Shown: piece by piece, positions 20,426 to 58,241 of the stretch
Numbering within the stretch: position 1 is the stretch's first letter
Layout: every line of letters starts with the position of its first letter
Virus record (IMG/VR): IMGVR_UViG_3300035520_000763
Span: 71,032-135,031 of that record
DNA: 64,000 nucleotides
Strand: one strand, 5' to 3'
DNA from: a virus
Lineage: Duplodnaviria > Heunggongvirae > Uroviricota > Caudoviricetes
The notes under the pieces: generated by a model
Told to the model about the DNA's origin: nothing
The model's database searches: none
What the model saw: the letters and a program-made list of their open reading frames with translations, nothing else
Position numbers and translations under genes: made by a program

Positions 20426-20517
20426 ATTATGATAGAAATTAATTTTAGAAATGAGTGACACACATATGTATAAATCTTGTCACCTGCACCTACAATAAAA
20501 TATTGAACACAAACACA

Positions 20518-20555
20518 AAGCATTTGGAGAAATATATACCAAATGCTTTTTCTTA
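20518..20555. terminator. strong hairpin terminator (AAAGCATTTGG-loop-CCAAATGCTTTTTCTT)
   Basis: 11-bp perfect stem followed by a T-run; ends the long + strand gene array; could act bidirectionally. Confidence 0.55.
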
Positions 20556-20838
20556 TGCAAAAATAAATAATCGAAGTCTTGAAGAAGGGAGATCTATATT
20601 ATGGAAAAGAGATTTAATATTTCAACCGTTGTTGAAGATGGGTATGTGCATTATGAGGTGGTTGATTGTCAAACCGGAAATGAAGTACATTGTGATACAA
20701 ATGAACTCAATTTAATTTTGTATGAATTAATCGGAATGTAACGCTATGACTAGAAATAACATACCGATGTATATCCAGAATTTATGAAAGGTAGGTGAAA
20801 ATATATGATGCTGAGTACAAAATATTATGAGATATAAG

Positions 20839-21063
20839 TCACTTAATATCATCTTTTGGAAGAAAATTTAAATCAAATTGTAAATTAAGTGCATCGAAAA
20901 TCCTAATTATTGTTTTACATTCAGTATTTTTACCATTTAATATTTGTTGGACATTTTGTGAAGTTGTATGCATATTAATTGCTAGTTCTTTTTGGGTAAT
21001 ATCATTTTTTTTCATATATTTTTGAATTTCCCAAAGCAAATCTTCTGTTGAATGAAAAACCAT
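20839..21063 (-). CDS. XRE-family HTH transcriptional regulator (Cro/CI-like, 74 aa)
   Basis: HTH signature ...ITQKELAINMHTTSQNVQQILNGKN...; only minus-strand gene; divergent from mazF-like gene. Confidence 0.7.
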   Translation of the reverse strand: MVFHSTEDLLWEIQKYMKKNDITQKELAINMHTTSQNVQQILNGKNTECKTIIRIFDALNLQFDLNFLPKDDIK

Positions 21064-21168
21064 ATGTATACCTCCAATTCAGTTTAAACATATTCAATTA
21101 TAATATTTTTGGTTAAAATTAACAATATATTAATAAATATTTTGTATAAAAATAAAACAAGTCATATA

Positions 21169-21197
21169 TTGCTAAACCAAGCCAGCGGTTGTATTAT
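21169..21197 (+). promoter_or_regulatory. candidate promoter TTGCTA-17-TATTAT in AT-rich divergent intergenic region
   Basis: Read from sequence; 140 bp upstream of the mazF-like ATG. Confidence 0.35.
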
Positions 21198-21335
21198 ATA
21201 TATGTATTAAAAAAATATAAAGAACATGAAAATTAAATAATTCATTCTTGAGTTAGGTGGTTTTTTGGATTTAGAGTGATACTGTTGTGGTGTCACCTTT
21301 TTGTAGTTTTAGTCTTCATGAAAGGAAGTATTATT

Positions 21336-21695
21336 ATGAATGACAAAAAAGAAATTAAAAGAGGAGAAATATATTATGCAGATTTAAGCCCAGTTGTGGG
21401 TTCGGAACAGGGTGGAGTAAGACCGGTCATTATTATCCAGAATGACAAGGGAAATATGTTTAGTCCGACTACAATTGTAGTAACTATGTCAACAAAAACA
21501 AAAAAGAAAGCTAATTTACCAACACATGCGTTGGTTTACAGCGTAAACCAGACGGGCTTAAAAGCAGACAGCGTAGCCTTATGCGAACAAATTCACACCA
21601 TTGATAAAAGTCGATTAAGGGAAAAGATTGGCAGCTTAAACGAAATTGCCTTAAACAAGGTAATGAAAGCAGTTAGTGTGAGTTTGAGCATGTAA
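21336..21695 (+). CDS. mazF: MazF/PemK/EndoA-family endoribonuclease toxin
   Basis: Very close match to the EndoA/MazF core (RGEIYYADLSPVVGSEQGGVRPVIIIQND...LPTH...DSV...EQIHTIDKSRL); ATG at 21336 after GAAAGGAAG; no mazE-like ORF upstream. Confidence 0.85.
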   Translation: MNDKKEIKRGEIYYADLSPVVGSEQGGVRPVIIIQNDKGNMFSPTTIVVTMSTKTKKKANLPTHALVYSVNQTGLKADSVALCEQIHTIDKSRLREKIGSLNEIALNKVMKAVSVSLSM

Positions 21696-21724
21696 TATGA
21701 TTTTTTATAAGGAGAAAATTAAAA

Positions 21725-22009
21725 ATGGATGAAATTTACAAAATCATAGATGCAAACCATGCAGTTCAGGAATTGCAGCGAATATCAAAAGTACATAAGA
21801 AAACAAAAATACATAAGATAAATTTAGAAAGGGGAACAAGTGAAAAAAATGATAAGGAAAACATAGAAGAAATAATTCGAGAAGCAAAGACAATTATCTT
21901 AAACAAAGACATATTCTTTGCACATATACAATGTTATACATGTGAGCAAAATATAGAAGATATAAAAAGGGAAGGTGTTATGTATGATGTGATATATAGT
22001 ATAGGATAA
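21725..22009 (+). CDS. hypothetical protein immediately downstream of the mazF-like gene
   Basis: ORF track; 30-bp gap after mazF; RBS AAGGAGAAAA. Confidence 0.5.
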   Translation: MDEIYKIIDANHAVQELQRISKVHKKTKIHKINLERGTSEKNDKENIEEIIREAKTIILNKDIFFAHIQCYTCEQNIEDIKREGVMYDVIYSIG

Positions 22010-22229
22010 AAATATATCCTTAAAAAATAGCATATTGGACAATATGTTCTATTGACAAAATCGAACAAAAGTTCTATGCTAAATATGTTGGGAAAATAAA
22101 AAAGAGAAAGCCTATCCAGTTCAAACGGTAATTGGGAGTTACCTACTAATGATAGAACTTTCTCTAACACAAATTCACCTTCCAGAACGGAAGGAATTTA
22201 GATACGGTAGATAAGCTAACCACTGAGCT

Positions 22230-22280
22230 AACCGCAGAATTAACTGCACCAACCGCAGAATTAACTGCACCAACCGCAAG
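22230..22280. repeat. tandem 21-bp direct repeat AACCGCAGAATTAACTGCACC x2.4 (iteron-like)
   Basis: Two perfect 21-bp copies plus a 9-bp partial copy; the last partial copy AACCGCAAG is inverted-repeat partner of CTTGCGGTT at 22321..22329, enclosing hairpin ACCTTGA-TTAG-TCAAGGT (22298..22315). Confidence 0.7.
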
Positions 22281-22456
22281 TCTATTTTACAGATTTCACC
22301 TTGATTAGTCAAGGTATTTTCTTGCGGTTCAGTTAAATTTTTCCATTATTACAATTACATATTAATTTTTTGTAACATATTCAATAATTCTTTGCGAATT
22401 GGTGTATATATGTTTGCATTTTTATCAAAAATTTAATACGAAAGGGGAATGATTAT

Positions 22457-23065
22457 GTGGATTATGTAATTAAGAATCATAATAACTTGTTTATTAAGCT
22501 AAACGAAAAGGGACAACCTGTTAGCTGCTCAGAAAAGGAGAAACAACTTTTTGAGTTCAGTAAGGCAAAGAATATTTGTGATTGTCTTCCTAAAACTTTG
22601 CGAAAAATCGGTTTTAAGGTAGAAGCAGTTCCGGATATTCCTACAACAAACCCAAATAAAATTGTACACAAAGAAGAATATATTGTTTCGGAGAATATTA
22701 CTAGGTGGATAGAAAAGTTTGGCACATGTTCAGATATTCTTGAAGAAGCAAAAATACGTGAAAGTCAGTTATGCAAAGAGTTGAAAAAATCAGACAATGA
22801 ATTACTTGATATTTTACATATTATTGAGATAGAGCCACCAAAGGACTTATATCACGGCTGGCTATTATACAAAAGAATAAAGAAAAACAGAAAAGAAAGA
22901 AGAGAAATAAAAGACGAGTTAATTATCGTCAAAGATGTTATTCAAGAAATTAATCCTTCTTGTTTACATCGAAAAAGAATACAAAAAGCGATAAATGGAT
23001 TATTTAACAGAGAATATACATTCAGAATCGTTGAAGGTGGTGATGATGAGAATGATTGTGTGTAA
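22457..23065 (+). CDS. hypothetical phage protein (GTG start)
   Basis: ORF track; RBS AAAGGGGAATGA. Confidence 0.5.
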   Translation: MDYVIKNHNNLFIKLNEKGQPVSCSEKEKQLFEFSKAKNICDCLPKTLRKIGFKVEAVPDIPTTNPNKIVHKEEYIVSENITRWIEKFGTCSDILEEAKIRESQLCKELKKSDNELLDILHIIEIEPPKDLYHGWLLYKRIKKNRKERREIKDELIIVKDVIQEINPSCLHRKRIQKAINGLFNREYTFRIVEGGDDENDCV

Positions 23066-23262: not shown

Positions 23263-25383
23263 ATGATAATGGATGCGAATTTAAATCAAATCGTAAATAC
23301 ATATTTCGAAAATAATGCTTATAAACTACATAAAATAGTGGACAAAATCTTATGGAAGCTAAACTTTCATGATGTTGACCACGAAGATTTTTATTCGTTA
23401 TCACATGAACTTTTTTATAAAAGTCTTGAAGATTACGATAGGTCAAAATCTTTTGATGCTTTTTTGTATTCTTGTCTCTATAAAAAATTTTGTACGGAAA
23501 TGACAGGAACAAATAGAGATAAGCGAAGTAATAATATTAAAGTTGAAAAAAAAGATGAAGACGGAAATATTATTAAAGACGAAACAGGAAATGTAGTAAC
23601 AGAAAAAATTAAAATTCCAGACATTTCTTTTGATACACCGGTAGGAGACGATGATAATACTCAACTTAAAGATATGATTAGTTCTAAATTTAACGTTGAA
23701 TCAAGTTTATTTTCTTCTTGCAGCGAGAATATGGAAAATTATATCAATAATTTGGATGAAATACAAAAGAATATCGCAGAAATGATAGGAGAAGGATTTA
23801 ATTCTTCTGAAATAAAAGGAAAGCTTAATTTAAGTGATAAAGAATATTCTCAACAAATATCTGTCATGAAATCTTATGAAAAAAGAAAAGTTTTTTATGA
23901 AGAAGAGAGCAATGATATGGAGGAAGAAAGCATGAATACAGGAGATTTAGTAGCAAATACGACAGAAACTTACAGAAATACAAGCTATAGTATTGAATCA
24001 ATAAGTAAACAATTGTCAAAAAAACAACTTAGAGATGACCATATTCTTCAAAGGCATAGCGGGCAATGGAAAAATTTTGCAAAAAGTGAATTGATTTCTG
24101 ATATTCTTCGTGGGAAATCTCTTACGCAAATTATTGTATCGGAAGAAATAAAAAATAATCTGCGTATGAAGTGGTTAATTGATGGTAAGCAGCGTTGCAC
24201 AACATTGCATGATTATCTGCTTGACGGATTTGCGATTCAGAAAAATGTTAAGAATTATAACATAAGATATCAGGCGGCAAAACTTGATGAGAATGGAAAT
24301 GAAATATTAAATGAAGAAGGTTTTGCTGTAATGGAAACCAAAGAATTTGATATTCGTGGCAAAAAGTTCTCGCAATTACCTGAAGAATTACAGGATATAT
24401 TCAAGGATAGACAGATACCTGTTTTATATAATGAAAATTGTACAAAAAAAGATATAGCAGATGATATAGCCAGATTTAATAGAAGTAGGTCGATGAATAC
24501 TGCACAGCTTGGTTGGTTAGGCTTAGATGAAGAATTTGCAGAATTGGTTGAAAAGATGACAAAAATGAAATTCTTCCAACCGAATTTCAAGGGAAGTTCT
24601 TATACCGATAATAACCACACATCAAGTGCAATAAGAAGAATAATTGTTGAAAGCATTTTTGTTTCAGATTTCATTAATGAATATAGTAAAGATTTTGAAA
24701 AGAAATGCACTTATTTATCAGAAGAAGCCAGCGATTCAAATTTCACAGAATTTTACAGCTATGTTGAACGGCTCACTTCCGTATCCAATGAAGATGTTGC
24801 AGATATGTTTAACGCTAAAAATTCATTTTTGTGGTTTGGATTATTTTCAAGATTTGATAATTATGGGCTTGATGATACAAAATTTATTGATTTTATGAAA
24901 GCCTTTAAAGAGTCTTTACATAAAAAGAAAATTAACGGTATATCTTACGAAGAACTTGAAGGTAAGGGGACAAAAGATAAAAACATAGTCACAAAAAAAA
25001 TGCAGCATTTGGAACAACTTATGAATGAATATTTACATAGTGACATAGAAAAAGCAAACAAAGAAGTTGATGAAGAAGATTCATTAAATATCGTTAAATA
25101 CATAAATCCTGATGTAACGGAAAAAGATATTCAGGATTATAAAGAAGATTTAGAAATATTAACTCTTGAAGTTAATAATAAAAGTAAATTGTTAGATGAA
25201 CGTAATATACCATCATTAATTGCCATGATTGCATATGGCTATACAAAAGATGAAGCAATTGATGAGTGGTTTGTAGATTACTTTAGGAGAAATAATATGT
25301 ATACACTAAATCAAAAACGCAATTTGCAACTAATGATTGAAGACTTTAATGAATTCAAAAAACAGAAGGGGGCGGTTGCGTAA
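23263..25383 (+). CDS. 706-aa fusion protein: N-terminal sigma-70-family-like region 2 + region 4 (aa ~30-215) fused to a DUF262 (ParB/Srx-fold) domain and a C-terminal helical domain
   Basis: Region-2-like motif ED-F-YSLSHELFYKSLEDYDRSKSFDAFLYSCLYKKF...R.KR; region-4-like HTH LDEIQKNIAEMIGEGFNSSEIKGKLNLSDKEYSQQISVMK; DUF262 signature HILQRHSGQW...LIDGKQRCTTL; single uninterrupted ORF with RBS AAGGCGG. Confidence 0.55.
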   Translation: MIMDANLNQIVNTYFENNAYKLHKIVDKILWKLNFHDVDHEDFYSLSHELFYKSLEDYDRSKSFDAFLYSCLYKKFCTEMTGTNRDKRSNNIKVEKKDEDGNIIKDETGNVVTEKIKIPDISFDTPVGDDDNTQLKDMISSKFNVESSLFSSCSENMENYINNLDEIQKNIAEMIGEGFNSSEIKGKLNLSDKEYSQQISVMKSYEKRKVFYEEESNDMEEESMNTGDLVANTTETYRNTSYSIESISKQLSKKQLRDDHILQRHSGQWKNFAKSELISDILRGKSLTQIIVSEEIKNNLRMKWLIDGKQRCTTLHDYLLDGFAIQKNVKNYNIRYQAAKLDENGNEILNEEGFAVMETKEFDIRGKKFSQLPEELQDIFKDRQIPVLYNENCTKKDIADDIARFNRSRSMNTAQLGWLGLDEEFAELVEKMTKMKFFQPNFKGSSYTDNNHTSSAIRRIIVESIFVSDFINEYSKDFEKKCTYLSEEASDSNFTEFYSYVERLTSVSNEDVADMFNAKNSFLWFGLFSRFDNYGLDDTKFIDFMKAFKESLHKKKINGISYEELEGKGTKDKNIVTKKMQHLEQLMNEYLHSDIEKANKEVDEEDSLNIVKYINPDVTEKDIQDYKEDLEILTLEVNNKSKLLDERNIPSLIAMIAYGYTKDEAIDEWFVDYFRRNNMYTLNQKRNLQLMIEDFNEFKKQKGAVA

Positions 25384-27729: not shown

Positions 27730-29361
27730 ATGGATAACGAAAATAAGAATATTAGTACAAGAAAAATAGTTTTAATACCAGAATATAGTGATACAAAAAA
27801 ATGGATAAAAAAGGTTAATGATTTTGCCATTTCTGATTATAAACATAAAATAGAAGTCAAAGAAGAACAGATTAAGAATATAAAAAAGAAAAAGCTAAAT
27901 AAAGAGGATGAGACAAGACTTTTAGAGAAATATCAAAAACAACTAGATACTTTAAATGATAAATTAAATACATATATTGAAACGAAAGAAATTACAAAAG
28001 AAATCGTTAATAATTACACATACAATCTGGTAAGAGAATCAATGGAATCAGAGGTAAGAAGAAAGAATTATATATTATCATGGGCTTTTAGCAAAATGAT
28101 TGAAAACGGTGTTCAGTATATGGATATTAAAGATAGGACAAAATTTATTAAAGATATGATGAATACTGCATATAGAGTAAAAGGCTCTAAAAAGGGAAGT
28201 GCTTTTGATGATGTTGAAATTAGTAATATTTTAAATGGATATGGTATAGCTTTTTCTAAGGATTTTACAAAAAAGTTAATTAAAGATGTGAATGATGGAT
28301 TATTAGACGGAAAAATTAGTCAAAGAACATATAAGATGGATTCGCCGTTTACGATAGCAAAGTCAACAATGGGATTCTCACATGATTATGATTCTTATGA
28401 AGAGTTATGCGAACACATCAATGATAAAGATTGTAATATGTATTTTGATTTTGGTGGAAATCAAAAACCGACAATTGCAAGATTTAAAATACATACCGGA
28501 TATAAAAAGAATAAGCAAGAACTAAACGCAACATTGTTAAAGATATATTCAGGAGAATACAAATATTGTGGCAGTAAAATAGAGTTAGATAAAACGGGTA
28601 AAAAAATAATACTCGATTTGTCATTTGAAATTCCTACAAAAGAAGTATTTTTAGATGAAAACCGAACTTGCGGAATTGATAGAGGTATTAAAATTCCGGC
28701 TGTATGTGCCTTAAATGATGATAAATATACTAGAGGATATTACGGTTATTGTGATGATTTGTTTGCTAAAAGAACGAAAATTCAAAATCAAAGAAAAAGA
28801 TTGCAGAAATCATTAACTTATACGAGTGGAGGGCATGGAAGAGATAAAAAATTAAAGGCACTTAAAAGATTGGAAGAATATGAGAAGAATTTTGTGGAAA
28901 ATTATCTTCACCATATCTCAAAACAATGTGTTGACTTTGCAGTAAAAAATCATTGCAAATACATAAATATTGAAAATTTAAAAGGCTATGATGCAGATGA
29001 TAAAATACTCCGAAATTGGTCTTATTATAAATTAGAGCAGTACATTACATATAAAGCTGAAAGATACGGAATTATTGTTAGAAAAATTAATCCTTGTTTT
29101 ACATCACAAGTATGTAGTTTTTGTGGAAGTTATGAAAAAGGGCAAAGAAAAACACAGTCAGATTTTTTGTGCGCTAATGAAAATTGTACAAGCCATTCTG
29201 AAAAACACAAATATATAAATGCGGATTTTAATGCAGCAAGGAATATTGCAATGTCCACATTATATTACGATGGAGAAATTACAAATAAACAGATAGAAGA
29301 AGCCGCAAATTATTATGGAATTGTATTAGATGAAAATAAGGATAAAGAACTGGTGGCATAG
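27730..29361 (+). CDS. TnpB/Cas12f-like RuvC-domain nuclease (543 aa), no adjacent TnpA
   Basis: RuvC-I CGIDRGIK, RuvC-II YINIENLKGY (E), TnpB-type C-terminal motifs NPCFTSQVCSFCG (zinc finger) ... CANENC ... INADFNAARNIA (RuvC-III D); about 170-aa N-terminal extension with coiled-coil relative to the 367-aa TnpB at 33625. Confidence 0.8.
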   Translation: MDNENKNISTRKIVLIPEYSDTKKWIKKVNDFAISDYKHKIEVKEEQIKNIKKKKLNKEDETRLLEKYQKQLDTLNDKLNTYIETKEITKEIVNNYTYNLVRESMESEVRRKNYILSWAFSKMIENGVQYMDIKDRTKFIKDMMNTAYRVKGSKKGSAFDDVEISNILNGYGIAFSKDFTKKLIKDVNDGLLDGKISQRTYKMDSPFTIAKSTMGFSHDYDSYEELCEHINDKDCNMYFDFGGNQKPTIARFKIHTGYKKNKQELNATLLKIYSGEYKYCGSKIELDKTGKKIILDLSFEIPTKEVFLDENRTCGIDRGIKIPAVCALNDDKYTRGYYGYCDDLFAKRTKIQNQRKRLQKSLTYTSGGHGRDKKLKALKRLEEYEKNFVENYLHHISKQCVDFAVKNHCKYINIENLKGYDADDKILRNWSYYKLEQYITYKAERYGIIVRKINPCFTSQVCSFCGSYEKGQRKTQSDFLCANENCTSHSEKHKYINADFNAARNIAMSTLYYDGEITNKQIEEAANYYGIVLDENKDKELVA

Positions 29362-33624: not shown

Positions 33625-34728
33625 ATGTTAAAAGCTTATAAATATAGATTATATCCAAATAAAGAACAGCAAGAATATTTTGCAAAATGTTTCGGTTGTG
33701 TACGATTCATCTATAATCGTATGCTTTCAGACAAGATTGAATATTATAAAGAAACAAAACAGAAACTTAATAATACACCTGCTCAGTATAAAAAAGAATT
33801 TGAATGGCTAAAAGAGGTTGATTCACTTGCATTAGCAAATGCTCAAATAAATTTACAGGCTGCTTATAACAACTTTTTCAAGCGTCCAGAAGTAGGATTC
33901 CCAAAATTCAAAAGTAAGAAAAACCACTATTACTCTTACACTACTAATAATCAGGGTGGAAATATTCATGTATCTGATAGATATATCAAACTTCCTAAGA
34001 TTGGTTTAGTAAGAGTAAAGAAACATAGAGTGTTTGCTGGTAAAATAAAATCTGTAACTGTTTCTAAAAATCCAAGTGGTAAGTATTTTGTGTCTGTATT
34101 GGTAGAATGTGAAGAACAAGAAAAACTTCAACAATCTAATACAAATGTAGGGATCGACTTAGGAATAAAAGAATTTGCTATTACTTCTGATGGAGAAAAA
34201 ATAGAAAATCCAAAGTTTCTTAAAAAATCAGAAAATAGACTTAGGAAATTACAAAAGGATTTGTCTCGCTGTCAAAAGGGCAGTAAGAATAGAGAAAAAT
34301 GCAGAATAAAAGTTGCAAAACAACATGAAAAAATAACTAACCAAAGAAAAGATTTTTTACATAAACTTTCAAAACGAATTATTGACGAAAACCAAGTCAT
34401 TTGTTTAGAGAATCTTAAAATAAAGAATATGTTAGGAAATCATAAATTGGCAAAATCAATATCCGATGTGTCATGGAGCGAATTTATAAGACAGTTGGAA
34501 TATAAAGCTGAATGGTATGAAAGAGAAATTATAAAAGTAGATACTTTCTATTCGTCAAGTCAGATATGTTCTAATTGTGGTCATAAAGATGGAAAGAAAG
34601 AACTTTCTGTAAGAGAATGGATTTGTCCTGTATGTGGAACATACCATGACAGAGATATTAATGCAGCTATAAATATCCTGAATGAAGGATTGAGAATAAG
34701 AAGCGTAGGGACTACGCCGATAGCCTAG
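33625..34728 (+). CDS. tnpB: IS605 OrfB / TnpB RuvC-like RNA-guided nuclease
   Basis: N-terminal [11 protein letters not shown], RuvC-I GIDLGIK, Ruv[15 protein letters not shown]-terminal zinc finger and RuvC-III motifs SSQICSNCG ... CPVCG ... [10 protein letters not shown]; 367 aa. Confidence 0.85.
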
Positions 34729-39655: not shown

Positions 39656-40327
39656 TTGAGTAGTACAAATAGAAGCAAAGCAAGAGATACACATATTGCA
39701 GATTATTATGTCACTCCAATTGAGGACGTGGAATTATTTTTAAGAGAATTCGATAAAACAGTTAAATTGAATTGGAACAGTATTAAAATTTTAGACCCTG
39801 CTGCTGGTGGAAATTACGAAATAAGAGATGATAACGGTATTAAAGAAGTATATCATCCTATGAGTTACCCAACAGCAATACATAATATTTTTGGTAATTG
39901 TAATGTAAATAATATTGATATTAGAAATGACTCACTGGCTGAAACTAAGGGTGATTATTTATCAATGGATGACATTAAAAAATTTAAACCAGAAGTTATT
40001 ATTACGAATCCACCATTTAATCAAGCAATTCCAATTATTGAGAAAGCATTAGATGACGTTGCAGATGACGGATATGTAATCATGTTACTTAGGCTAAATT
40101 TCTTTGGCAGCAAGGATAGAAAACCATTTTTTGAGAAGTACATGCCAGAATATTGTTTTATTCACCATATTAGAATTGGATTTGTTGATAAGAAAGATGA
40201 AAATGGTTATGTATTATTTGATAAAGATGATAAACCTAAACGTGGAAGTACGGACTCAATTGAATATGCACATTATGTATGGCATAAAGGTCATTATCCT
40301 GAATTTGCGAAGATCAAGGTCATATAA
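39656..40327 (+). CDS. N6-adenine DNA methyltransferase (gamma/alpha-type; motif I LDPAAGG, motif IV NPPF)
   Basis: Motifs DYYVTP (motif X-like), ILDPAAGGN, IITNPPFN; TTG start per ORF track. Confidence 0.65.
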   Translation: MSSTNRSKARDTHIADYYVTPIEDVELFLREFDKTVKLNWNSIKILDPAAGGNYEIRDDNGIKEVYHPMSYPTAIHNIFGNCNVNNIDIRNDSLAETKGDYLSMDDIKKFKPEVIITNPPFNQAIPIIEKALDDVADDGYVIMLLRLNFFGSKDRKPFFEKYMPEYCFIHHIRIGFVDKKDENGYVLFDKDDKPKRGSTDSIEYAHYVWHKGHYPEFAKIKVI

Positions 40328-48797: not shown

Positions 48798-49535
48798 GTG
48801 CTTGAAATTATAGGTGAAGAAAATATATCAGAGATAATCGAACCTAGTTGTGGCAATGGTTCATTCTATCACTATAACTCATATATCCCGCATTTCGGAT
48901 ATGACATAGAACCACAATGCGATTATCAAGGTGTGATTAAAGCTGATTTCTTAACACAGGACATACATTATTTATGGGGAAGATTAGTTATTGGCAATCC
49001 TCCATATGGTAGGTGTATGAATTTAGCACAGAAATTTTACAAGAAGTCGGTTGAGATTGCAGATTACATAGCATTTATCCTTCCTATAAGCCAGTTAAAC
49101 AATACAAGGTCAATGTATGAGTTTGACTTAATATATAGTGAAGATTTAGGAATAGCCACTTATACCGATAGGGAGTTACATTGCTGTTTTAATATTTATA
49201 AGCGTCCTGAAAATGGAGTATTAAATAAGAAGCCAACGGCAAAATTAAAGGATATTACAATCTATCGGCAAGATTGTAAGGATTATGAGAATAAAGATTT
49301 TGATATCCGTATGTGCTATTGGGGAGATGGTACAGCAGGTAAGATTTTAAAAGATGATGAGCATTATTCTGCCGAGTATAAAATCAAGGTTAATGACGAT
49401 TCAAAAAGAGAAGATATTATTAGAGTGTTATCTACATTTGACTGGAAAGAATATTTGAACTGTATAGCGATGAGAAAAATTCAACAGTTTCATATTGTAG
49501 ATGTACTAAAAGATAATATAAGTGGAATTAAATAA
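48798..49535 (+). CDS. N6-adenine DNA methyltransferase (motif I EPSCGNGSF, motif IV NPPY); true N-terminus probably upstream (frame open from 48726 and encodes YYTP motif without a canonical start)
   Basis: Motifs from translation; GTG start per ORF track. Confidence 0.65.
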   Translation: MLEIIGEENISEIIEPSCGNGSFYHYNSYIPHFGYDIEPQCDYQGVIKADFLTQDIHYLWGRLVIGNPPYGRCMNLAQKFYKKSVEIADYIAFILPISQLNNTRSMYEFDLIYSEDLGIATYTDRELHCCFNIYKRPENGVLNKKPTAKLKDITIYRQDCKDYENKDFDIRMCYWGDGTAGKILKDDEHYSAEYKIKVNDDSKREDIIRVLSTFDWKEYLNCIAMRKIQQFHIVDVLKDNISGIK

Positions 49536-49607: not shown

Positions 49608-50330
49608 ATGGGTTCAAAGAGCAGAATAGTTAATAACATTCTGCCAATAATTCAACAAAGATTAAAAGATTATAATATTAAAACATATATTGAGCCATTT
49701 TGCGGCGGGCTTAATGTAATAGACAAAGTGGTTTGTAATAAGAAAATTGCATCAGATAATCATAAATATCTTATTGCCATGTTCCAAAATTTAGACAAAA
49801 TTCAAGAACTTCCCGATTTTGTAACAAAAGAACATTATTCAGAAGTAAGAGATTGCTTTAATGAAGGAGAAGTATATTTTCCAGATTGGTACATAGGAGC
49901 AATCGGTTTTCTTGCAAGCTATAACGGAAGATTTTTTGATGGTGGATATTCAGGATTAGTCAACACGAAAGCTGGTACTGTAAGAAACTATTATGACGAA
50001 GCAAAAAGAAATTTAATAGAACAGATACAAAACTTGCAAGATATAGAGTTTCGATGCTGCGATTACAGAGAATATACAGATTATGAAGATTGTTTGTTCT
50101 ATTTAGATCCACCATATAAGGGTAAGAAACAATATGGTTCAAGTAAGGAATTTAATCATGATGAGTTTTGGAACTGGTGTAGACATATGAGTGAGAAAAA
50201 TATTGTACTTATTAGTGAGCATGAGGCTCCTTCGGATTTTGAATGTATCTGGGAGCAACCGGTTAAAAGAACAATTGACAATAATAAGCGTGTAAATGTA
50301 GTTGAAAGATTATTCGAGATTAGAGAGTGA
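49608..50330 (+). CDS. dam: Dam-family (D12-class) DNA adenine methyltransferase
   Basis: Motif I IEPFCGGLNV and motif IV YLDPPYKG characteristic of Dam-like MTases. Confidence 0.75.
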   Translation: MGSKSRIVNNILPIIQQRLKDYNIKTYIEPFCGGLNVIDKVVCNKKIASDNHKYLIAMFQNLDKIQELPDFVTKEHYSEVRDCFNEGEVYFPDWYIGAIGFLASYNGRFFDGGYSGLVNTKAGTVRNYYDEAKRNLIEQIQNLQDIEFRCCDYREYTDYEDCLFYLDPPYKGKKQYGSSKEFNHDEFWNWCRHMSEKNIVLISEHEAPSDFECIWEQPVKRTIDNNKRVNVVERLFEIRE

Positions 50331-53109: not shown

Positions 53110-54150
53110 ATGACTATTGAACAGATCAAAACAAAATTAAAGTCAGAAGAATATGATTTTCTTAAAAATAATGAACATTTGGGAAGTAATATTATTTTAT
53201 TAACTCTAGGTGGTAGCTATGCTTACGGTACTAACATTAATACATCTGATTATATGAGCGATTTAGACTTCAGAGGAGTTGCATTAAATAAAAAAGAAGA
53301 AATTTTAATAGGGCACCCTTTCGAACAAGTTGATAATCGTGAGACAGATACCGTGATTTATAGTTTCAATAAGATTATAAAACTTCTTACAAATTGTAAT
53401 CCTAATGTTATTGAGCTTTTAGGCGGAAAGAAGGAATATTATTTATATAAATCAAAAATTGGAGATGAGTTGATTGAGAATAGAAAGTTATTCTTATCTA
53501 AAAAAGCTGCTTTTACATTTGGGGCTTATGCAAGTAGTCAATTATATCGTTTAAATCAGAAATCGGCACATCAATTATCACAAGCTGGATTAGAACAGCA
53601 TATCCTAAAGACGCTTGAATTTATGAAGACTGATTTCAATAAGAAATATTCAGATTTTGCTGAAGATCAGATTAGTCTTTATATTGATAAGGCAATACAG
53701 GAAGGATATGATACAGAAATTTTTATGGATATAAAGCTGACTCATTATCCTTTACGTGATTATTGTTCAATGTGGAGTGAATTGCAAAATACGGTTAAAG
53801 CATATGGAAAGATTGGAAAACGTAATGAGAAAGCGATTGAACATGGGAAAATCGCAAAGCATATGATGCATTTGATTCGCCTCTATATGATGTGTCTGGA
53901 TATTCTTGAAAAAGAGAAGATTATCACATACAGAGAAAAAGAGCATAATCTGTTAATGGATATTCGTAATGGTAAATTCCTTGATGATAATGACCAACCA
54001 ATTCCAGAGTTCTTTGAAATGGTTAATGATTATGAGAAGAAACTGGATTATGCGAAAGAGAATACTAATCTGCCGGATAATCCAGATTATAATGCAATCA
54101 ATGAGTTTGTTGCTAGTGTCAACGAAAGGGTGGTAAAAGGTGAAATTTAA
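53110..54150 (+). CDS. predicted nucleotidyltransferase (Pol-beta-fold, PF10127-like; GS...DLDFRG and NPNVIELL motifs)
   Basis: Motifs TLGGSYAYGT...SDLDFRGVA...NCNPNVIELLGG read from translation. Confidence 0.55.
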   Translation: MTIEQIKTKLKSEEYDFLKNNEHLGSNIILLTLGGSYAYGTNINTSDYMSDLDFRGVALNKKEEILIGHPFEQVDNRETDTVIYSFNKIIKLLTNCNPNVIELLGGKKEYYLYKSKIGDELIENRKLFLSKKAAFTFGAYASSQLYRLNQKSAHQLSQAGLEQHILKTLEFMKTDFNKKYSDFAEDQISLYIDKAIQEGYDTEIFMDIKLTHYPLRDYCSMWSELQNTVKAYGKIGKRNEKAIEHGKIAKHMMHLIRLYMMCLDILEKEKIITYREKEHNLLMDIRNGKFLDDNDQPIPEFFEMVNDYEKKLDYAKENTNLPDNPDYNAINEFVASVNERVVKGEI

Positions 54151-55495
54151 TGTAAATATACCGACAGATGCGAATGAGCTAATCCATACATTACAGAAAA
54201 ATGGACACTCAGCATATGTGGTTGGTGGTTGTGTCAGGGACAGCGTATTAGGTAGAATCCCGCATGATTGGGATATATGTACATCAGCTACACCATCTGA
54301 AATGTTAGAAATTTTCAAAGATAGAAGAATAATTGAAACTGGTTTGCAGCATGGAACGGTAACTGTTGTAGTGAACAATGAGCCTTATGAAATTACTACC
54401 TTTCGGATTGACGGTAATTATTCAGATAATCGTAGACCAGATAATGTAACATTCACAGATAGTTTAAGAGAAGATTTAAAACGAAGAGATTTTACTATCA
54501 ACGCAATGGCTTATAACGATGAAGAAGGTTTGATTGATCCGTTTCATGGTATGGAAGATATTAATCATAGAAAAATAGATTGTGTTGGTTCAGCAAAAGA
54601 TAGATTTAGTGAAGATACTCTAAGAATACTTCGTGCAATAAGATTTGCAGCACAGTTGGATTTTGTAATATCTCCTGATACTGATTGGGAAATTCATCGA
54701 CAGTACAAGAGTTTAGAGAATATATCTATTGAAAGAATTAATAGTGAATTTTGTAAAATCGCTTCTTCAGATACTTTTTGTATTCAGCTTCTTTTATATA
54801 ATGATGTATTTTCTTTATTTATCCCAGAATTAAAGAATATGATTGACTTCCCTCAAAACAATCCGTACCACGAATATGATGTGTTTGACCACACCATTCA
54901 TGCATTAGAACGATGTGATAGTAAGGATTTAACTGTGAGATTAGCTGTGTTATTTCATGATTTTGGGAAAACACATTGTTATCAGGATGGAGAAGATGGT
55001 ATTAGGCATTTCAAAGGACATGGAAAAGTAAGTGCCGAAATGACTGATTGGATTATGAAATGTCTTAAATTTGATAATAAGATGAGAAATAATGTTGTAG
55101 AACTTGTTTATTATCACGATGCTACATTTGAAGTTGGAAAGAAGTATATAAAGAGATGGCTTAATAAAATTGGGGTAAAACAGTTTAAACGATTATTAGA
55201 AGTAAGAAAAGCTGATATAAAAGGTCAAAAAGCAGAATACGAAAAAGAACGAATAGAGAAAATAAATAATATAGAGAAGATTCTGGAAGAAGTATTACAG
55301 GAGCAAGAATGTTTCTCTTTGAAAAATTTGGCGGTCAACGGCAATGACTTAATTGAAATGGGTTATAAATCCGGAAAAGAATTAGGTAAAACATTGAATC
55401 TGCTCTTACAGATGGTTATTGATGGTGATTGCCCAAATGATAAAGAGAAATTATTACAAGAAGCAGAAAATTTGTGGATGGAAAGGAGAATGTAA
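54140..55495 (+). CDS. cca: CCA-adding tRNA nucleotidyltransferase with HD phosphohydrolase domain
   Basis: Head motifs VVGGCVRD...WDI (DxD), RRDFTINAMAY, LRAIRFAAQL; HD motif VLFHDFGK; 451 aa. Confidence 0.8.
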   Translation: MKFNVNIPTDANELIHTLQKNGHSAYVVGGCVRDSVLGRIPHDWDICTSATPSEMLEIFKDRRIIETGLQHGTVTVVVNNEPYEITTFRIDGNYSDNRRPDNVTFTDSLREDLKRRDFTINAMAYNDEEGLIDPFHGMEDINHRKIDCVGSAKDRFSEDTLRILRAIRFAAQLDFVISPDTDWEIHRQYKSLENISIERINSEFCKIASSDTFCIQLLLYNDVFSLFIPELKNMIDFPQNNPYHEYDVFDHTIHALERCDSKDLTVRLAVLFHDFGKTHCYQDGEDGIRHFKGHGKVSAEMTDWIMKCLKFDNKMRNNVVELVYYHDATFEVGKKYIKRWLNKIGVKQFKRLLEVRKADIKGQKAEYEKERIEKINNIEKILEEVLQEQECFSLKNLAVNGNDLIEMGYKSGKELGKTLNLLLQMVIDGDCPNDKEKLLQEAENLWMERRM

Positions 55496-55498
55496 GTA

Positions 55499-56386
55499 TT
55501 GAAATGTTTTTACCATACGGATGAGGATGGCAAGTGTAGTGCATTTTGGGTAAAAGAACTTGCAAAACACTATGATAATTATGATATAGAATTTATACCT
55601 ATTAACTACGGTATGGATTTTCCGTTTGACTCTATTAGAGAAAATGAACAGGTATACATTGTTGATTATTCAATCTTTCCTAATGAAATGGAGAAGTTAT
55701 TAGAGATAACAAAAGATGTTACGTGGATAGATCATCATATTTCTGCAATTAACAGATACAATACTCCTGAGTTTTCGCATTTACATATTAAGGGATTGAG
55801 ATATGACGGAATTGCCGGTTGTATGCTTACATATTGCTACTTGAAACATATGGTTAAAGTGGAGCAGAAAAATGGAAGTATAGTTTGTACTCCGTTCGAT
55901 ATTTCAATGACAGAAGATGCCCCTATGTTTACAACGTATATAGCAGATTTTGATGTGTGGAAATTTGAATATGAACCCACAAAAGCATTTGAAATGGGTT
56001 TACAGTTATATGATTTAGATCCAAATAGTAGAGTGTGGAAGTCATTTTATTATGAAAGTGAGATTCAAAATATTATCAAAGACGGTTATCTTTTATTAGA
56101 TTATCGTGATAAATGGTCTAAAGAATATTGCGAATGTACTGGCTTTGATGTGGAATTTGAAGGATATAAATGTTTTGCTGTAAATTTAGCGATGATTAGT
56201 AGCGACAATTTTAAATCAATAAATGAAGAAGATTATGATATGTTTATTGGCTTTTCATATAATGGCAGATCATGGAATTATTCACTCCGTTCTACAAAGG
56301 TTGATTGTTCCAAGATTGCTATGAAATATGGTGGCGGTGGACATAAAGGTGCATCAGGTTTCAGTTCAGATAGGTTGTTGTTTTAA
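55499..56386 (+). CDS. DHH/DHHA1-family phosphoesterase (NrnA/RecJ-like)
   Basis: Motif I HTDEDGKCSA, motif III WIDHH, DHHA1 GGGGH; TTG start per ORF track. Confidence 0.65.
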   Translation: MKCFYHTDEDGKCSAFWVKELAKHYDNYDIEFIPINYGMDFPFDSIRENEQVYIVDYSIFPNEMEKLLEITKDVTWIDHHISAINRYNTPEFSHLHIKGLRYDGIAGCMLTYCYLKHMVKVEQKNGSIVCTPFDISMTEDAPMFTTYIADFDVWKFEYEPTKAFEMGLQLYDLDPNSRVWKSFYYESEIQNIIKDGYLLLDYRDKWSKEYCECTGFDVEFEGYKCFAVNLAMISSDNFKSINEEDYDMFIGFSYNGRSWNYSLRSTKVDCSKIAMKYGGGGHKGASGFSSDRLLF

Positions 56387-57457: not shown

Positions 57458-57548
57458 ATATAAGTTGGAAGATAAATAAGAAAGTAGGTGATATTACATA
57501 TTTGAAAATAATACATATGAGCTATTTCAAGGTAAATGTCTTAAATTG

Positions 57549-58241
57549 ATGAAAGATATTCCAGATAAATCTATTGATATGATCTTATGCGATTTGCCAT
57601 ATAACCGTACTCAAAACAAATGGGATATAGTAATCCCATTCGACAAAATGTGGGAGGAATATACTAGGATAATAAAGAACAATGGTGCGATTTGTTTATT
57701 TGCAGATGGCATGTTTATGGCGGATCTAATGGAGAGTAATAAAAAATTATGGAGATATAATTTGGTATGGAATAAAGTTTTAACTTCTGGATTTTTAAAT
57801 GCTAATAGGCAGCCATTAAGACAGCATGAGGAAATTTGTGTTTTTTATAAGAAACAACCCACATATAATCCGCAAAAGGTAAAAGGGAGTAAGAATCATA
57901 GCAAGGGCAAAGAAAAGAAGAATAAAAATAATAATTACAACGATTTTGAATTTGTAGATAATTCGGATGAATTAGGCGATATGAAACATCCAACAAGTAT
58001 TTTGACTTTTCAAAAACCACATCCGTCAACTATGGTGCATCCAACACAGAAGTCAGTTGAACTTTGTGAATGGTTAATTAAGACATATACAAACGCAGGA
58101 GATACAGTATTGGATAATTGTATGGGTTCCGGTACAACAGGCGTTGCTGCTCTGAATCTTGACAGGAAGTTTATAGGAATGGAACTAGATGAGAATTATT
58201 TTAATATAGCGGAGAAGAGAATAAAAGAATTGGAGAAATAA
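57549..58241 (+). CDS. beta-class DNA methyltransferase (motif IV DLPY before motif I GSGTTGVAA); ParB-MTase-like
   Basis: Motifs ...SIDMILCDLPYN... and VLDNCMGSGTTGVAA; conserved N-terminal LFQGKCLKL segment encoded in frame upstream without a canonical start. Confidence 0.65.
   Translation: MKDIPDKSIDMILCDLPYNRTQNKWDIVIPFDKMWEEYTRIIKNNGAICLFADGMFMADLMESNKKLWRYNLVWNKVLTSGFLNANRQPLRQHEEICVFYKKQPTYNPQKVKGSKNHSKGKEKKNKNNNYNDFEFVDNSDELGDMKHPTSILTFQKPHPSTMVHPTQKSVELCEWLIKTYTNAGDTVLDNCMGSGTTGVAALNLDRKFIGMELDENYFNIAEKRIKELEK

Follow-up and report, generated by a model that had tools for sequence, protein, structure and literature searches.

A conserved downstream partner, a putative antitoxin of no known family, accompanies a MazE-less MazF on a phage-like mobile element of gut Clostridia

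Introduction

What holds an EndoA-type MazF toxin in check when no mazE gene accompanies it is the question raised by a locus in a stretch of 64,000 nucleotides (the window), which covers positions 71,032 to 135,031 of the IMG/VR viral record IMGVR_UViG_3300035520_000763 (Caudoviricetes). MazF is among the best-studied bacterial toxins, and to our knowledge every antidote found for it so far either resembles MazE as a protein or is a peptide mimic of the MazE helix. An initial annotation, made from the DNA letters alone, had described here an orphan MazF-like toxin flanked by a divergent gene for a small helix-turn-helix (HTH) protein and, downstream, by an open reading frame (ORF) for a protein of 94 residues, and had proposed, among several alternatives, either neighbour as a non-canonical antitoxin.

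Comparative evidence favours the downstream ORF, here called X. It tips the balance modestly towards a toxin-first pair in which X is the probable neutraliser of MazF, and in which a separate and exchangeable divergent regulator, an HTH or a ribbon-helix-helix (RHH) protein, would control the pair.

The toxin and its partner gene

The product of mazF (Table 1) matches Pfam PemK_toxin (PF02452) with an expectation value (E) of 1.4e-32, scoring 112.6 bits where the cut-off is 23.1 and spanning positions 1-108 of a profile of 109; it also matches the PHROG family 'MazF-like growth inhibitor' with E = 1.3e-33. EndoA and MazF structures in the PDB are matched with E from 1e-33 to 1e-29, led by 7BXY, 4HKE, 4MDX and 4ME7 at E ~1e-33, and residues 7-118 are colinear over 112 residues with the Bacillus subtilis EndoA structures 4MDX and 4ME7, as had been noticed at the outset. 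The GSEQGGVRPV loop, including Arg29, is intact, and the other residues that are invariant in the EndoA group, apart from the second catalytic position discussed below, are also kept. The catalytic positions are Arg25 and Thr48 in B. subtilis numbering, which correspond to Arg29 and Thr52 in E. coli numbering; Arg stands at position 29 in 73 of 77 MazF relatives, and His replaces it in the other four. The ratio of nonsynonymous to synonymous substitution rates (dN/dS) in the MazF family is 0.09 over 476 pairs, a sign of strong purifying selection. From these features the window MazF is intact in sequence and is predicted to be a sequence-specific endoribonuclease of the EndoA type. Three short metagenomic contigs carry identical copies of it, its next relatives are at most 64% identical, and no close DNA relatives of the window were found among GenBank phages or PLSDB plasmids.

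X starts 29 nt past the MazF stop codon, which confirms the adjacency first described with a gap of 30, and is preceded by an AAGGAG Shine-Dalgarno sequence at 21709..21714. A profile search for its family recovered 156 protein clusters, all of ~95-105 residues and none with a Pfam domain, and HMMER, run exhaustively over 1.84 billion representative proteins, yielded only 70 clusters. In viral contigs, single-sequence queries with the window MazF or X returned nothing, and alignments headed by a central family member did give matches. X has no match in Pfam, PHROGs, NCBIfam or PADLOC, and nothing meaningful among PDB sequences, so that the suggested profile check for a cryptic known antitoxin came back empty; nor was there any tblastn match in 50,697 GenBank phage records or in PLSDB plasmids. 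X also lacks an RHH or AbrB-type DNA-binding domain. The X family evolves with a dN/dS of 0.05 (476 pairs), again under strong purifying selection; X is a real gene, and its fold is confidently predicted. The median isoelectric point is 8.9 (basic) for MazF and 5.7 (mildly acidic) for X.

In the core of the X family an Asn, an Asp, a His, a Gln and an Asp are invariant, and an enzymatic function for X was therefore considered. It was rejected as the leading idea because these polar residues are not preserved in the distant members of the superfamily, which lose His67, Asn60, Asp62 and Asp88; this speaks against an enzyme active site. Also rejected was the idea that MazF spares its own mRNA and targets that of X, since the sequence UACAU, which occurs 0 times in the window mazF and 3 times in X, shows no bias across 93 unique pairs.

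MazF and X are inherited together

Two relatives, on contigs of 148 kb and 132 kb, carry the same order of a small minus-strand gene, MazF, an ORF of 98-101 residues, a long spacer, an ORF of ~200 residues and a large GmrSD_N protein, and their 98-101-residue ORFs are X homologues with 32-37% identity. Through X, 149 loci were fetched from viral, metagenomic and genome collections; a scan of genome contigs, confirmed against the divergent window X, returned 2 loci. With the earlier loci counted, MazF directly precedes X on the same strand, at a gap of -29 to +29 nt, in all 156 loci that have room upstream. A protein homologous to one of 706 residues encoded farther downstream follows X in 135 of 139 loci, so that nearly all X loci represent one broad syntenic element family.

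Sister elements were sampled independently through this unrelated 706-residue marker, which gave 80 viral loci. MazF and X are both present in 30 of them; 28 hold a much more divergent MazF, which matches that of the window at E = 1e-10 to 1e-19 and after which comes a different ORF of 83-98 residues at -21, -3 or 0 nt; and 16 have neither MazF nor X. No true singleton of MazF or of a partner was found among the 80, the sole X-only case being truncated by the locus edge. Some of the replacement partners are remotely related to X: one type aligns with it by hhalign at E = 4.6e-4 over 81 columns, and the partner in another sister element (L276) resembles P0307, itself a profile match of the X family. 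Four of four distant X-superfamily members that were looked up (profile E = 1e-3 to 3e-10) sit right after a PemK_toxin gene, and one distant member has different flanks, in the order HTH_26 on the minus strand, MazF, X and integrase. In the sister element L279 an integrase is followed directly by the LexA-box promoter described below, and HTH, MazF and X are all missing together.

At least two further partner types were seen after divergent MazFs, with overlapping stop and start codons (L249-L308), one marked by 'VDEAIKLLTEYKKNG...' and the other by '...YQDNDFFG...'; they are at best remote relatives of X. This looks like diversification of the partner alongside the toxin.

Presence or absence as a unit has been used in comparative genomics of toxin-antitoxin (TA) modules as a criterion for pairing (PMC2701414). 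In these comparisons MazF and its partner come, go and diversify together, as one would expect of a toxin and its specific neutraliser. One feature of a type II module in the broad sense is thus present, a small partner gene in a two-gene operon that is co-inherited with the toxin in the X loci, the sister elements and the distant members alike. With so obligate a companion, the word 'orphan' is misleading for this toxin. MazF and X diverge in step (r = 0.91), but linked genes are expected to do so, and this correlation was not counted in favour of co-evolution.

The divergent regulator and the upstream region

Plus-strand ORFs of at least 60 residues cover 86.5% of the window, and the HTH gene is, in the window census, the only minus-strand ORF of at least 50 residues that lies in a gap between plus-strand ORFs and looks protein-like, as had been claimed. 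Its product reaches 25.4 bits against HTH_26 (cut-off 22), E = 2.4e-4 against HTH_3 and E = 1.9e-8 against phrog_1468 'transcriptional repressor'. The divergent spacer between the HTH gene and mazF holds no plus-strand ORF except one of 33 residues with a TTG start, in keeping with the claim that no mazE lies upstream. Promoter-like sites in it, at 21169..21197 on the plus strand (TTGCTA-17-TATTAT) and at 21125..21097 and 21221..21193 on the minus strand, are not enriched over shuffled sequences, and blastn with the spacer matches identical copies only. Of 86 unique relatives, 57 have a near-consensus TTGACA-17-TATAAT at 51-91 nt upstream of the mazF start, and compared with it the candidate mazF promoter of the window is weaker. 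The promoter spacer in those relatives is lineage-specific in sequence and palindromic in several, as expected if these stretches were operators of different repressors. In the 5' leader of mazF, a hairpin with a U-run is a possible attenuator or stability element.

At least 165 of 202 related loci have a small minus-strand gene for a DNA-binding protein ahead of MazF; one HTH type is found in 129 loci, the HTH type of the window in 27, and an RHH protein of 57 residues in 6. No minus-strand regulator gene was detected in 22 of the 202, and none lies nearby in 9 of the 16 sister elements without the cassette. Because two HTH families and an RHH occupy the same place among relatives, the regulator is exchangeable, and the HTH protein reads as a separate transcriptional regulator of the cassette, predicted from its sequence and position, and not as an antitoxin.

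Farther upstream, the strong terminator hairpin that had been described was recovered at 20517..20549, with a predicted RNA folding free energy of -12.3 kcal/mol and z = -4.24 (0 of 200 shuffles as good); a simple terminator scan had missed it owing to its 11-nt loop. Between this hairpin and the 3' end of the HTH gene lies an ORF of 46 residues (20601..20741) with a good Shine-Dalgarno sequence (GGGAG), which is called as a gene in the identical contigs and has no family match.

Table 1. Features of the MazF locus and its surroundings, with positions in the window
Feature	Position	Strand	Description
Intrinsic-terminator-like hairpin	20517..20556	+	11-bp stem and 11-nt loop (20517..20549), then UUUUCUU; closes the upstream plus-strand transcription unit
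XRE-type HTH gene	20839..21063	-	74 residues; HTH_26 E = 1.7e-5; probable repressor of the shared promoter region
Divergent control region	21064..21335	.	272 bp, AT-rich, 23% GC versus 31% in the window; without a MazE ORF
mazF leader hairpin and U-run	21276..21305 (hairpin 21276..21296)	+	free energy -9.6 kcal/mol, z = -2.4
mazF	21336..21695	+	119 residues; EndoA-type PemK/MazF endoribonuclease, by Pfam, PHROG and PDB matches
X	21725..22009	+	94 residues; conserved MazF partner, putative neutralising protein (antitoxin); compact alpha/beta fold (predicted), no known family
LexA-box promoter	22052..22080	+	strong sigma-70-type, TTGACA-17-TATGCT; LexA/Cheo box in the spacer; predicted SOS-inducible
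Structured leader of the LexA-box promoter	22087..22456	+	~370 nt, fold z = -3.15; holds the 21-nt repeats and a terminator-like hairpin at 22298..22315
21-nt direct repeats ('iteron block')	22222..22284		three copies, ACTGAGCTAACCGCAGAATTA and variants; inside the LexA-box promoter leader
ORF202	22457..23065	+	202 residues; first gene after the LexA-box promoter, outside the cassette; no Pfam match
706-residue protein	23263..25383	+	conserved marker of the element family, outside the cassette; weak sigma-70 region-2/ECF-like N-terminus and GmrSD_N/DUF262 (NsnA-like)

A LexA-box promoter downstream of the cassette

The box of Gram-positive LexA (Cheo or DinR) has the consensus CGAAC-N4-GTTCG, with the core GAAC-N4-GTTC. 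Such a box, GAACAAAAGTTC, lies at 22063..22074 in the spacer of the strong promoter past X; the window has two exact copies of GAAC-N4-GTTC where 0.35 would be expected. The same type of promoter is found 25-148 nt after X in all 97 unique relatives, and in these the core is perfect in 53 and has one mismatch in 27, compared with 1.9% and 4.1%, respectively, of background 29-mers. The downstream early genes of the element family appear, by sequence, to be under direct control of the host SOS response. No terminator was found between X and this promoter.

The three 21-nt repeats in the leader are real, and they are confined to this element and its identical copy, being absent from 96 other related downstream regions. 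A role as iterons or replication origin, as 'iteron block' had implied, was rejected, for the repeats are not conserved, lie in a transcribed leader and come with no initiator that Pfam or PHROG searches could find. What stands of the 'regulatory hub' proposed for this region is the conserved LexA-box promoter in the spacer after X, in whose leader the non-conserved 'iterons' lie. Past the leader follow ORF202, homologues of which come after X in 60 of 139 loci, an ORF of 77 residues and the 706-residue protein. The last matches GmrSD_N (E = 1.4e-5) and sigma70-ECF (E = 2e-4), both below cut-off, and PADLOC NsnA at E = 1.3e-11; the fusion of a sigma-like domain to a ParB/DUF262-type domain in this protein is unusual.

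How the module might work, and the alternatives

In the reading that we favour, the locus is a three-gene cassette in which mazF encodes an EndoA-type endoribonuclease, and X, translated from the same mRNA, would bind MazF and block its activity as a globular inhibitor. X would then be an antitoxin of a new family, encoded in toxin-first order and without a DNA-binding domain, and the DNA binding normally carried by MazE would be supplied in trans by the divergent XRE-type protein, acting as a repressor at the shared divergent promoter region. Many relatives have the cassette between an integrase-type gene and the LexA-box promoter. Temperate phages usually keep accessory genes that are expressed from the prophage beside the integrase, before the early promoter. 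Because of its place between these two landmarks, the cassette would most likely be expressed from the resident element, which it might stabilise by post-segregational killing or protect by aborting superinfection.

Several points weigh against this reading. Neither the sequence nor the predicted fold of X resembles any known antitoxin, MazE included. Classical antitoxins evolve fast and are labile and in part disordered, whereas X is, in the predicted model, well folded, constrained at least as much as MazF, and with nothing that hints at lability. A toxin-first order requires an extra mechanism to provide antitoxin in excess, and none was identified. Because the X loci share one element family with conserved synteny, raw adjacency counts overstate the evidence for a pair. 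The second catalytic position of MazF is Ser52 in the window copy only, whereas 77 of 78 relatives have Thr; of the conserved residues whose loss would have spoken against an active toxin, Arg29 and the GSEQGG loop are kept and the Thr is replaced conservatively. Finally, a missing MazE is less exceptional than it had seemed. Retrieval through MazF gave 80 loci on viral contigs, of which 61 (within L173-L241) have neither an upstream MazE-like ORF nor X, and a widespread chromosomal MazF of Clostridia (P0018; L330 2226..3234), which is 60% identical to the window MazF and adjoins ctsR-clpC, has no same-strand ORF of at least 20 residues in the 275 nt upstream and nothing X-like downstream. The latter looks, by sequence, like a true MazE-less MazF, and EndoA-type MazFs without MazE or X may need no linked protein antitoxin.

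At L173-L241 some downstream neighbours recur, among them proteins of 317-336 residues that are integrase-like by eye and a family of 50-53 residues (MSKEQTANEVKYKITLKYLG...) that is helical by eye; these neighbours may be further non-canonical partners. Elsewhere, a 180-residue 'MazF' (P0003) in an NCBI metagenome-assembled genome (L012 4992..5543) repeats in frame a stretch of ~65 residues internal to MazF, as an assembly artefact or a duplication. With this internal duplication in the contig and no clear MazE, L012 was not used as an example of the canonical alr-mazE-mazF order.

These MazE-less and partnerless toxins, frequent on viral contigs and present in a Clostridia chromosome, give weight to the most serious alternative, which we regard as rather unlikely, though by no means negligible: the MazF of the window would be effectively solitary, serving in host shut-off, transcript processing or the choice between lysis and lysogeny under purely transcriptional control by the divergent HTH or RHH protein, and X would be an accessory protein and not the neutraliser of this MazF. 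X might then be, for instance, a specificity or activating subunit, a factor that handles RNA ends, or an inhibitor of the host MazF. Solo toxins are generally common, Myxococcus xanthus having a solo MazF (PMC2701414), and in phi3T host MazF activity promotes lysogeny and the phage proteins AimX and YosL bind MazF (PMC10769878). The globular, stable-looking and very strongly constrained X lacks the hallmarks of a labile antitoxin, and on the element there are also genes for a tRNA nucleotidyltransferase, a DHH phosphoesterase and one more nucleotidyltransferase. Against a solitary toxin stands the strict joint presence and absence of the two genes; moreover, divergent MazFs come with divergent partners that share overlapping stop and start codons, which is what a specific protein-protein pair predicts. 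In addition, no catalytic-looking residue is conserved across the X superfamily, and a resident element would pay a high price for an EndoA-type MazF left unrestrained behind consensus promoters.

A bolder extension of the favoured toxin-first pair, which we hold to be unlikely and put forward by analogy, is that X founds a structurally new class of MazF inhibitors and that HTH, MazF and X together form the element's own governor of lysis and lysogeny. In the resident state, MazF that is free, at least in part, would hold lytic transcripts down, as happens in phi3T through the host MazF. Once the SOS response is induced, the lytic programme would be released by read-through or by an altered stoichiometry of MazF and X beside the LexA-controlled early promoter. 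Were this so, the phage would have made a host MazF circuit its own, along with an antidote other than MazE.

That the divergent HTH protein is the antitoxin, in the manner of HipB, HigA or MqsA, with X unrelated to MazF, had been among the first proposals and now seems very unlikely. Xre-type proteins are a recognised class of antitoxins (PMC2701414), the gene is distributed together with the cassette in most loci and missing from a good part of the cassette-less sisters, and weak matches link it to TIGR03070 'couple_hipB' (E = 8.6e-5, far below cut-off) and to phrog_1381 'plasmid antitoxin with HTH domain' (E = 5.5e-3). The gene is, however, transcribed divergently and not together with mazF; its product, at 67-88 residues among relatives, amounts to a DNA-binding domain alone and leaves no space for an extension that could bind a toxin; and it is replaced by a non-homologous RHH protein (L004-type) or by the second HTH family while MazF stays similar, or is not detected at all.

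Still less probable is a catalytically impaired MazF with a non-toxic role that needs no antidote, to which the Ser of the window copy and the His in place of Arg29 in four relatives might point; the intact Arg29, GSEQGG loop and other EndoA invariants, the hydroxyl group that a Thr-to-Ser change retains, the low dN/dS of the family and the near-universal Arg and Thr of the relatives argue otherwise. Least probable of all is an RNA antitoxin of type I or III, be it the mazF leader hairpin or a repeat-containing RNA from the promoter at 22052, for which the hairpin and U-run before mazF and, past X, the consensus promoter, the structured leader, the three repeats and the terminator-like hairpin could speak, but against which count the absence of any Rfam or tRNA match, an upstream spacer without detectable conservation beyond identical copies, repeats that related elements lack and that follow the toxin gene where type III arrays precede it, and a downstream spacer whose conserved part is a LexA-box promoter heading protein-coding genes.

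The element and its other genes

The relatives of this locus are IMG/VR contigs of 85-215 kb from human-gut samples, and a related element (L242) is present in the isolate Lactonifactor sp. BIOML-A3/A5. Genes in the window include those for integrases, IS200/IS605-type transposases, several DNA methyltransferases, a tRNA nucleotidyltransferase and a DHH phosphoesterase, and no structural genes were found in it. Because the window shows genes of mobile elements and no structural genes, its source is called, from gene content, a large phage-like mobile element of gut Clostridia and not a proven phage.

Genes for a nucleotidyltransferase (phrog_388), a CCA-adding tRNA nucleotidyltransferase (phrog_2244, E = 2.9e-76) and a DHH phosphoesterase lie at 53110..56386, and genes for KptA/Tpt1 (PTS_2-RNA) and an NYN RNase occur near the cassette in the relatives L004 and L007; there may be a theme of RNA repair and processing on an element that encodes an RNase toxin. 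Transposase genes of the TnpB type, IS200/IS605 family, are found at 27730..29361 and 33625..34728 (phrog_506, E = 3.6e-35 and 4.8e-146), and Y1_Tnp/OrfB_IS605 pairs near the cassette in L242. At least four DNA methyltransferase genes, all on the plus strand (39656..40327, 48798..49535, 49608..50330 and 57546..58241), come with no restriction-enzyme partner identified and may be the anti-restriction load typical of large mobile elements.

Implications

If X neutralises MazF, it would represent a new family of antitoxins and probably a new mode of MazF inhibition, which would help to explain how this toxin is controlled and could serve as a tool. Although new antitoxin families turn up regularly, a non-MazE partner of an EndoA-type MazF that abundant gut elements conserve next to an SOS promoter is a clean and testable lead. 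A toxin-first pair with a swappable divergent repressor beside such a promoter would likewise make a concrete and testable case of a mobile element with a MazF circuit of its own, of relevance to the recent findings that MazF steers decisions of phages between lysis and lysogeny. The survey further shows that gut mobile elements commonly carry EndoA-type MazFs that have no MazE, and that at least one Clostridia chromosome has such a MazF too.

Comparison with known toxin-antitoxin systems

The MazEF module of B. subtilis (EndoAI/EndoA, ydcDE; 4ME7, 4MDX) and the related mazEF, pemIK and kis-kid modules share with the cassette the toxin (E ~1e-33, catalytic Arg) and a small partner gene in the operon. 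They differ in that here no MazE is encoded upstream and the partner lies downstream, has no RHH or AbrB domain and is unlike MazE in sequence and predicted fold, DNA binding apparently being delegated to a separate divergent gene. Neither an upstream co-transcribed antitoxin gene nor an antitoxin that combines an RHH or AbrB-type DNA-binding domain at its N-terminus with a tail for toxin binding at its C-terminus was found at the locus; because both the upstream antitoxin and the antitoxin DNA-binding domain are absent, the module is not a canonical mazEF operon. A type III arrangement of the ToxIN kind is not seen either, there being no repeats upstream of mazF, lineage-specific repeats downstream and no Rfam match.

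In omega-epsilon-zeta of pSM19035 and in paaR2-paaA2-parE2 a separate regulator is encoded in the same orientation or operon, and the antitoxin, which has no DNA-binding domain, precedes the toxin. The present cassette resembles them in an antitoxin-like protein without a DNA-binding domain and in a linked gene for a small RHH or HTH protein that is a probable repressor, whereas its regulator is divergent and exchangeable, its toxin comes first, and that toxin is MazF and not zeta or ParE. Toxin-first modules are known as well, in higBA, hicAB and mqsRA, where the antitoxins carry HTH or RHH domains and autoregulate, and the toxins are of the RelE, HicA and MqsR types. These share with the cassette a toxin gene that comes first, in one operon and with a short spacer or overlap, but X has no DNA-binding domain and the toxin here is MazF; gene-order statistics of type II modules are available (PMC10440598).

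AimX and YosL of phi3T and SPbeta are phage proteins other than MazE that bind and inactivate host MazF of the EndoA type and that mimic the C-terminal helix of MazE (PMC10769878). A phage-encoded non-MazE binder of MazF is what X is predicted to be, too, and MazF activity is tied there to the choice between lysis and lysogeny, the cassette here lying beside a predicted SOS-controlled early promoter. Here, however, the element encodes its own MazF, and X has no similarity to MazE. The solitary MazF of M. xanthus is controlled by MrpC, a transcription factor encoded elsewhere. It is like the window MazF in having no linked MazE (PMC2701414), and differs in that the latter has a linked and co-inherited partner gene. 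The partner family and the fold of X are not described in any library searched, and by analogy with the systems above, the cassette would work most like a toxin-first type II pair that is joined to the split-regulator logic of omega-epsilon-zeta.

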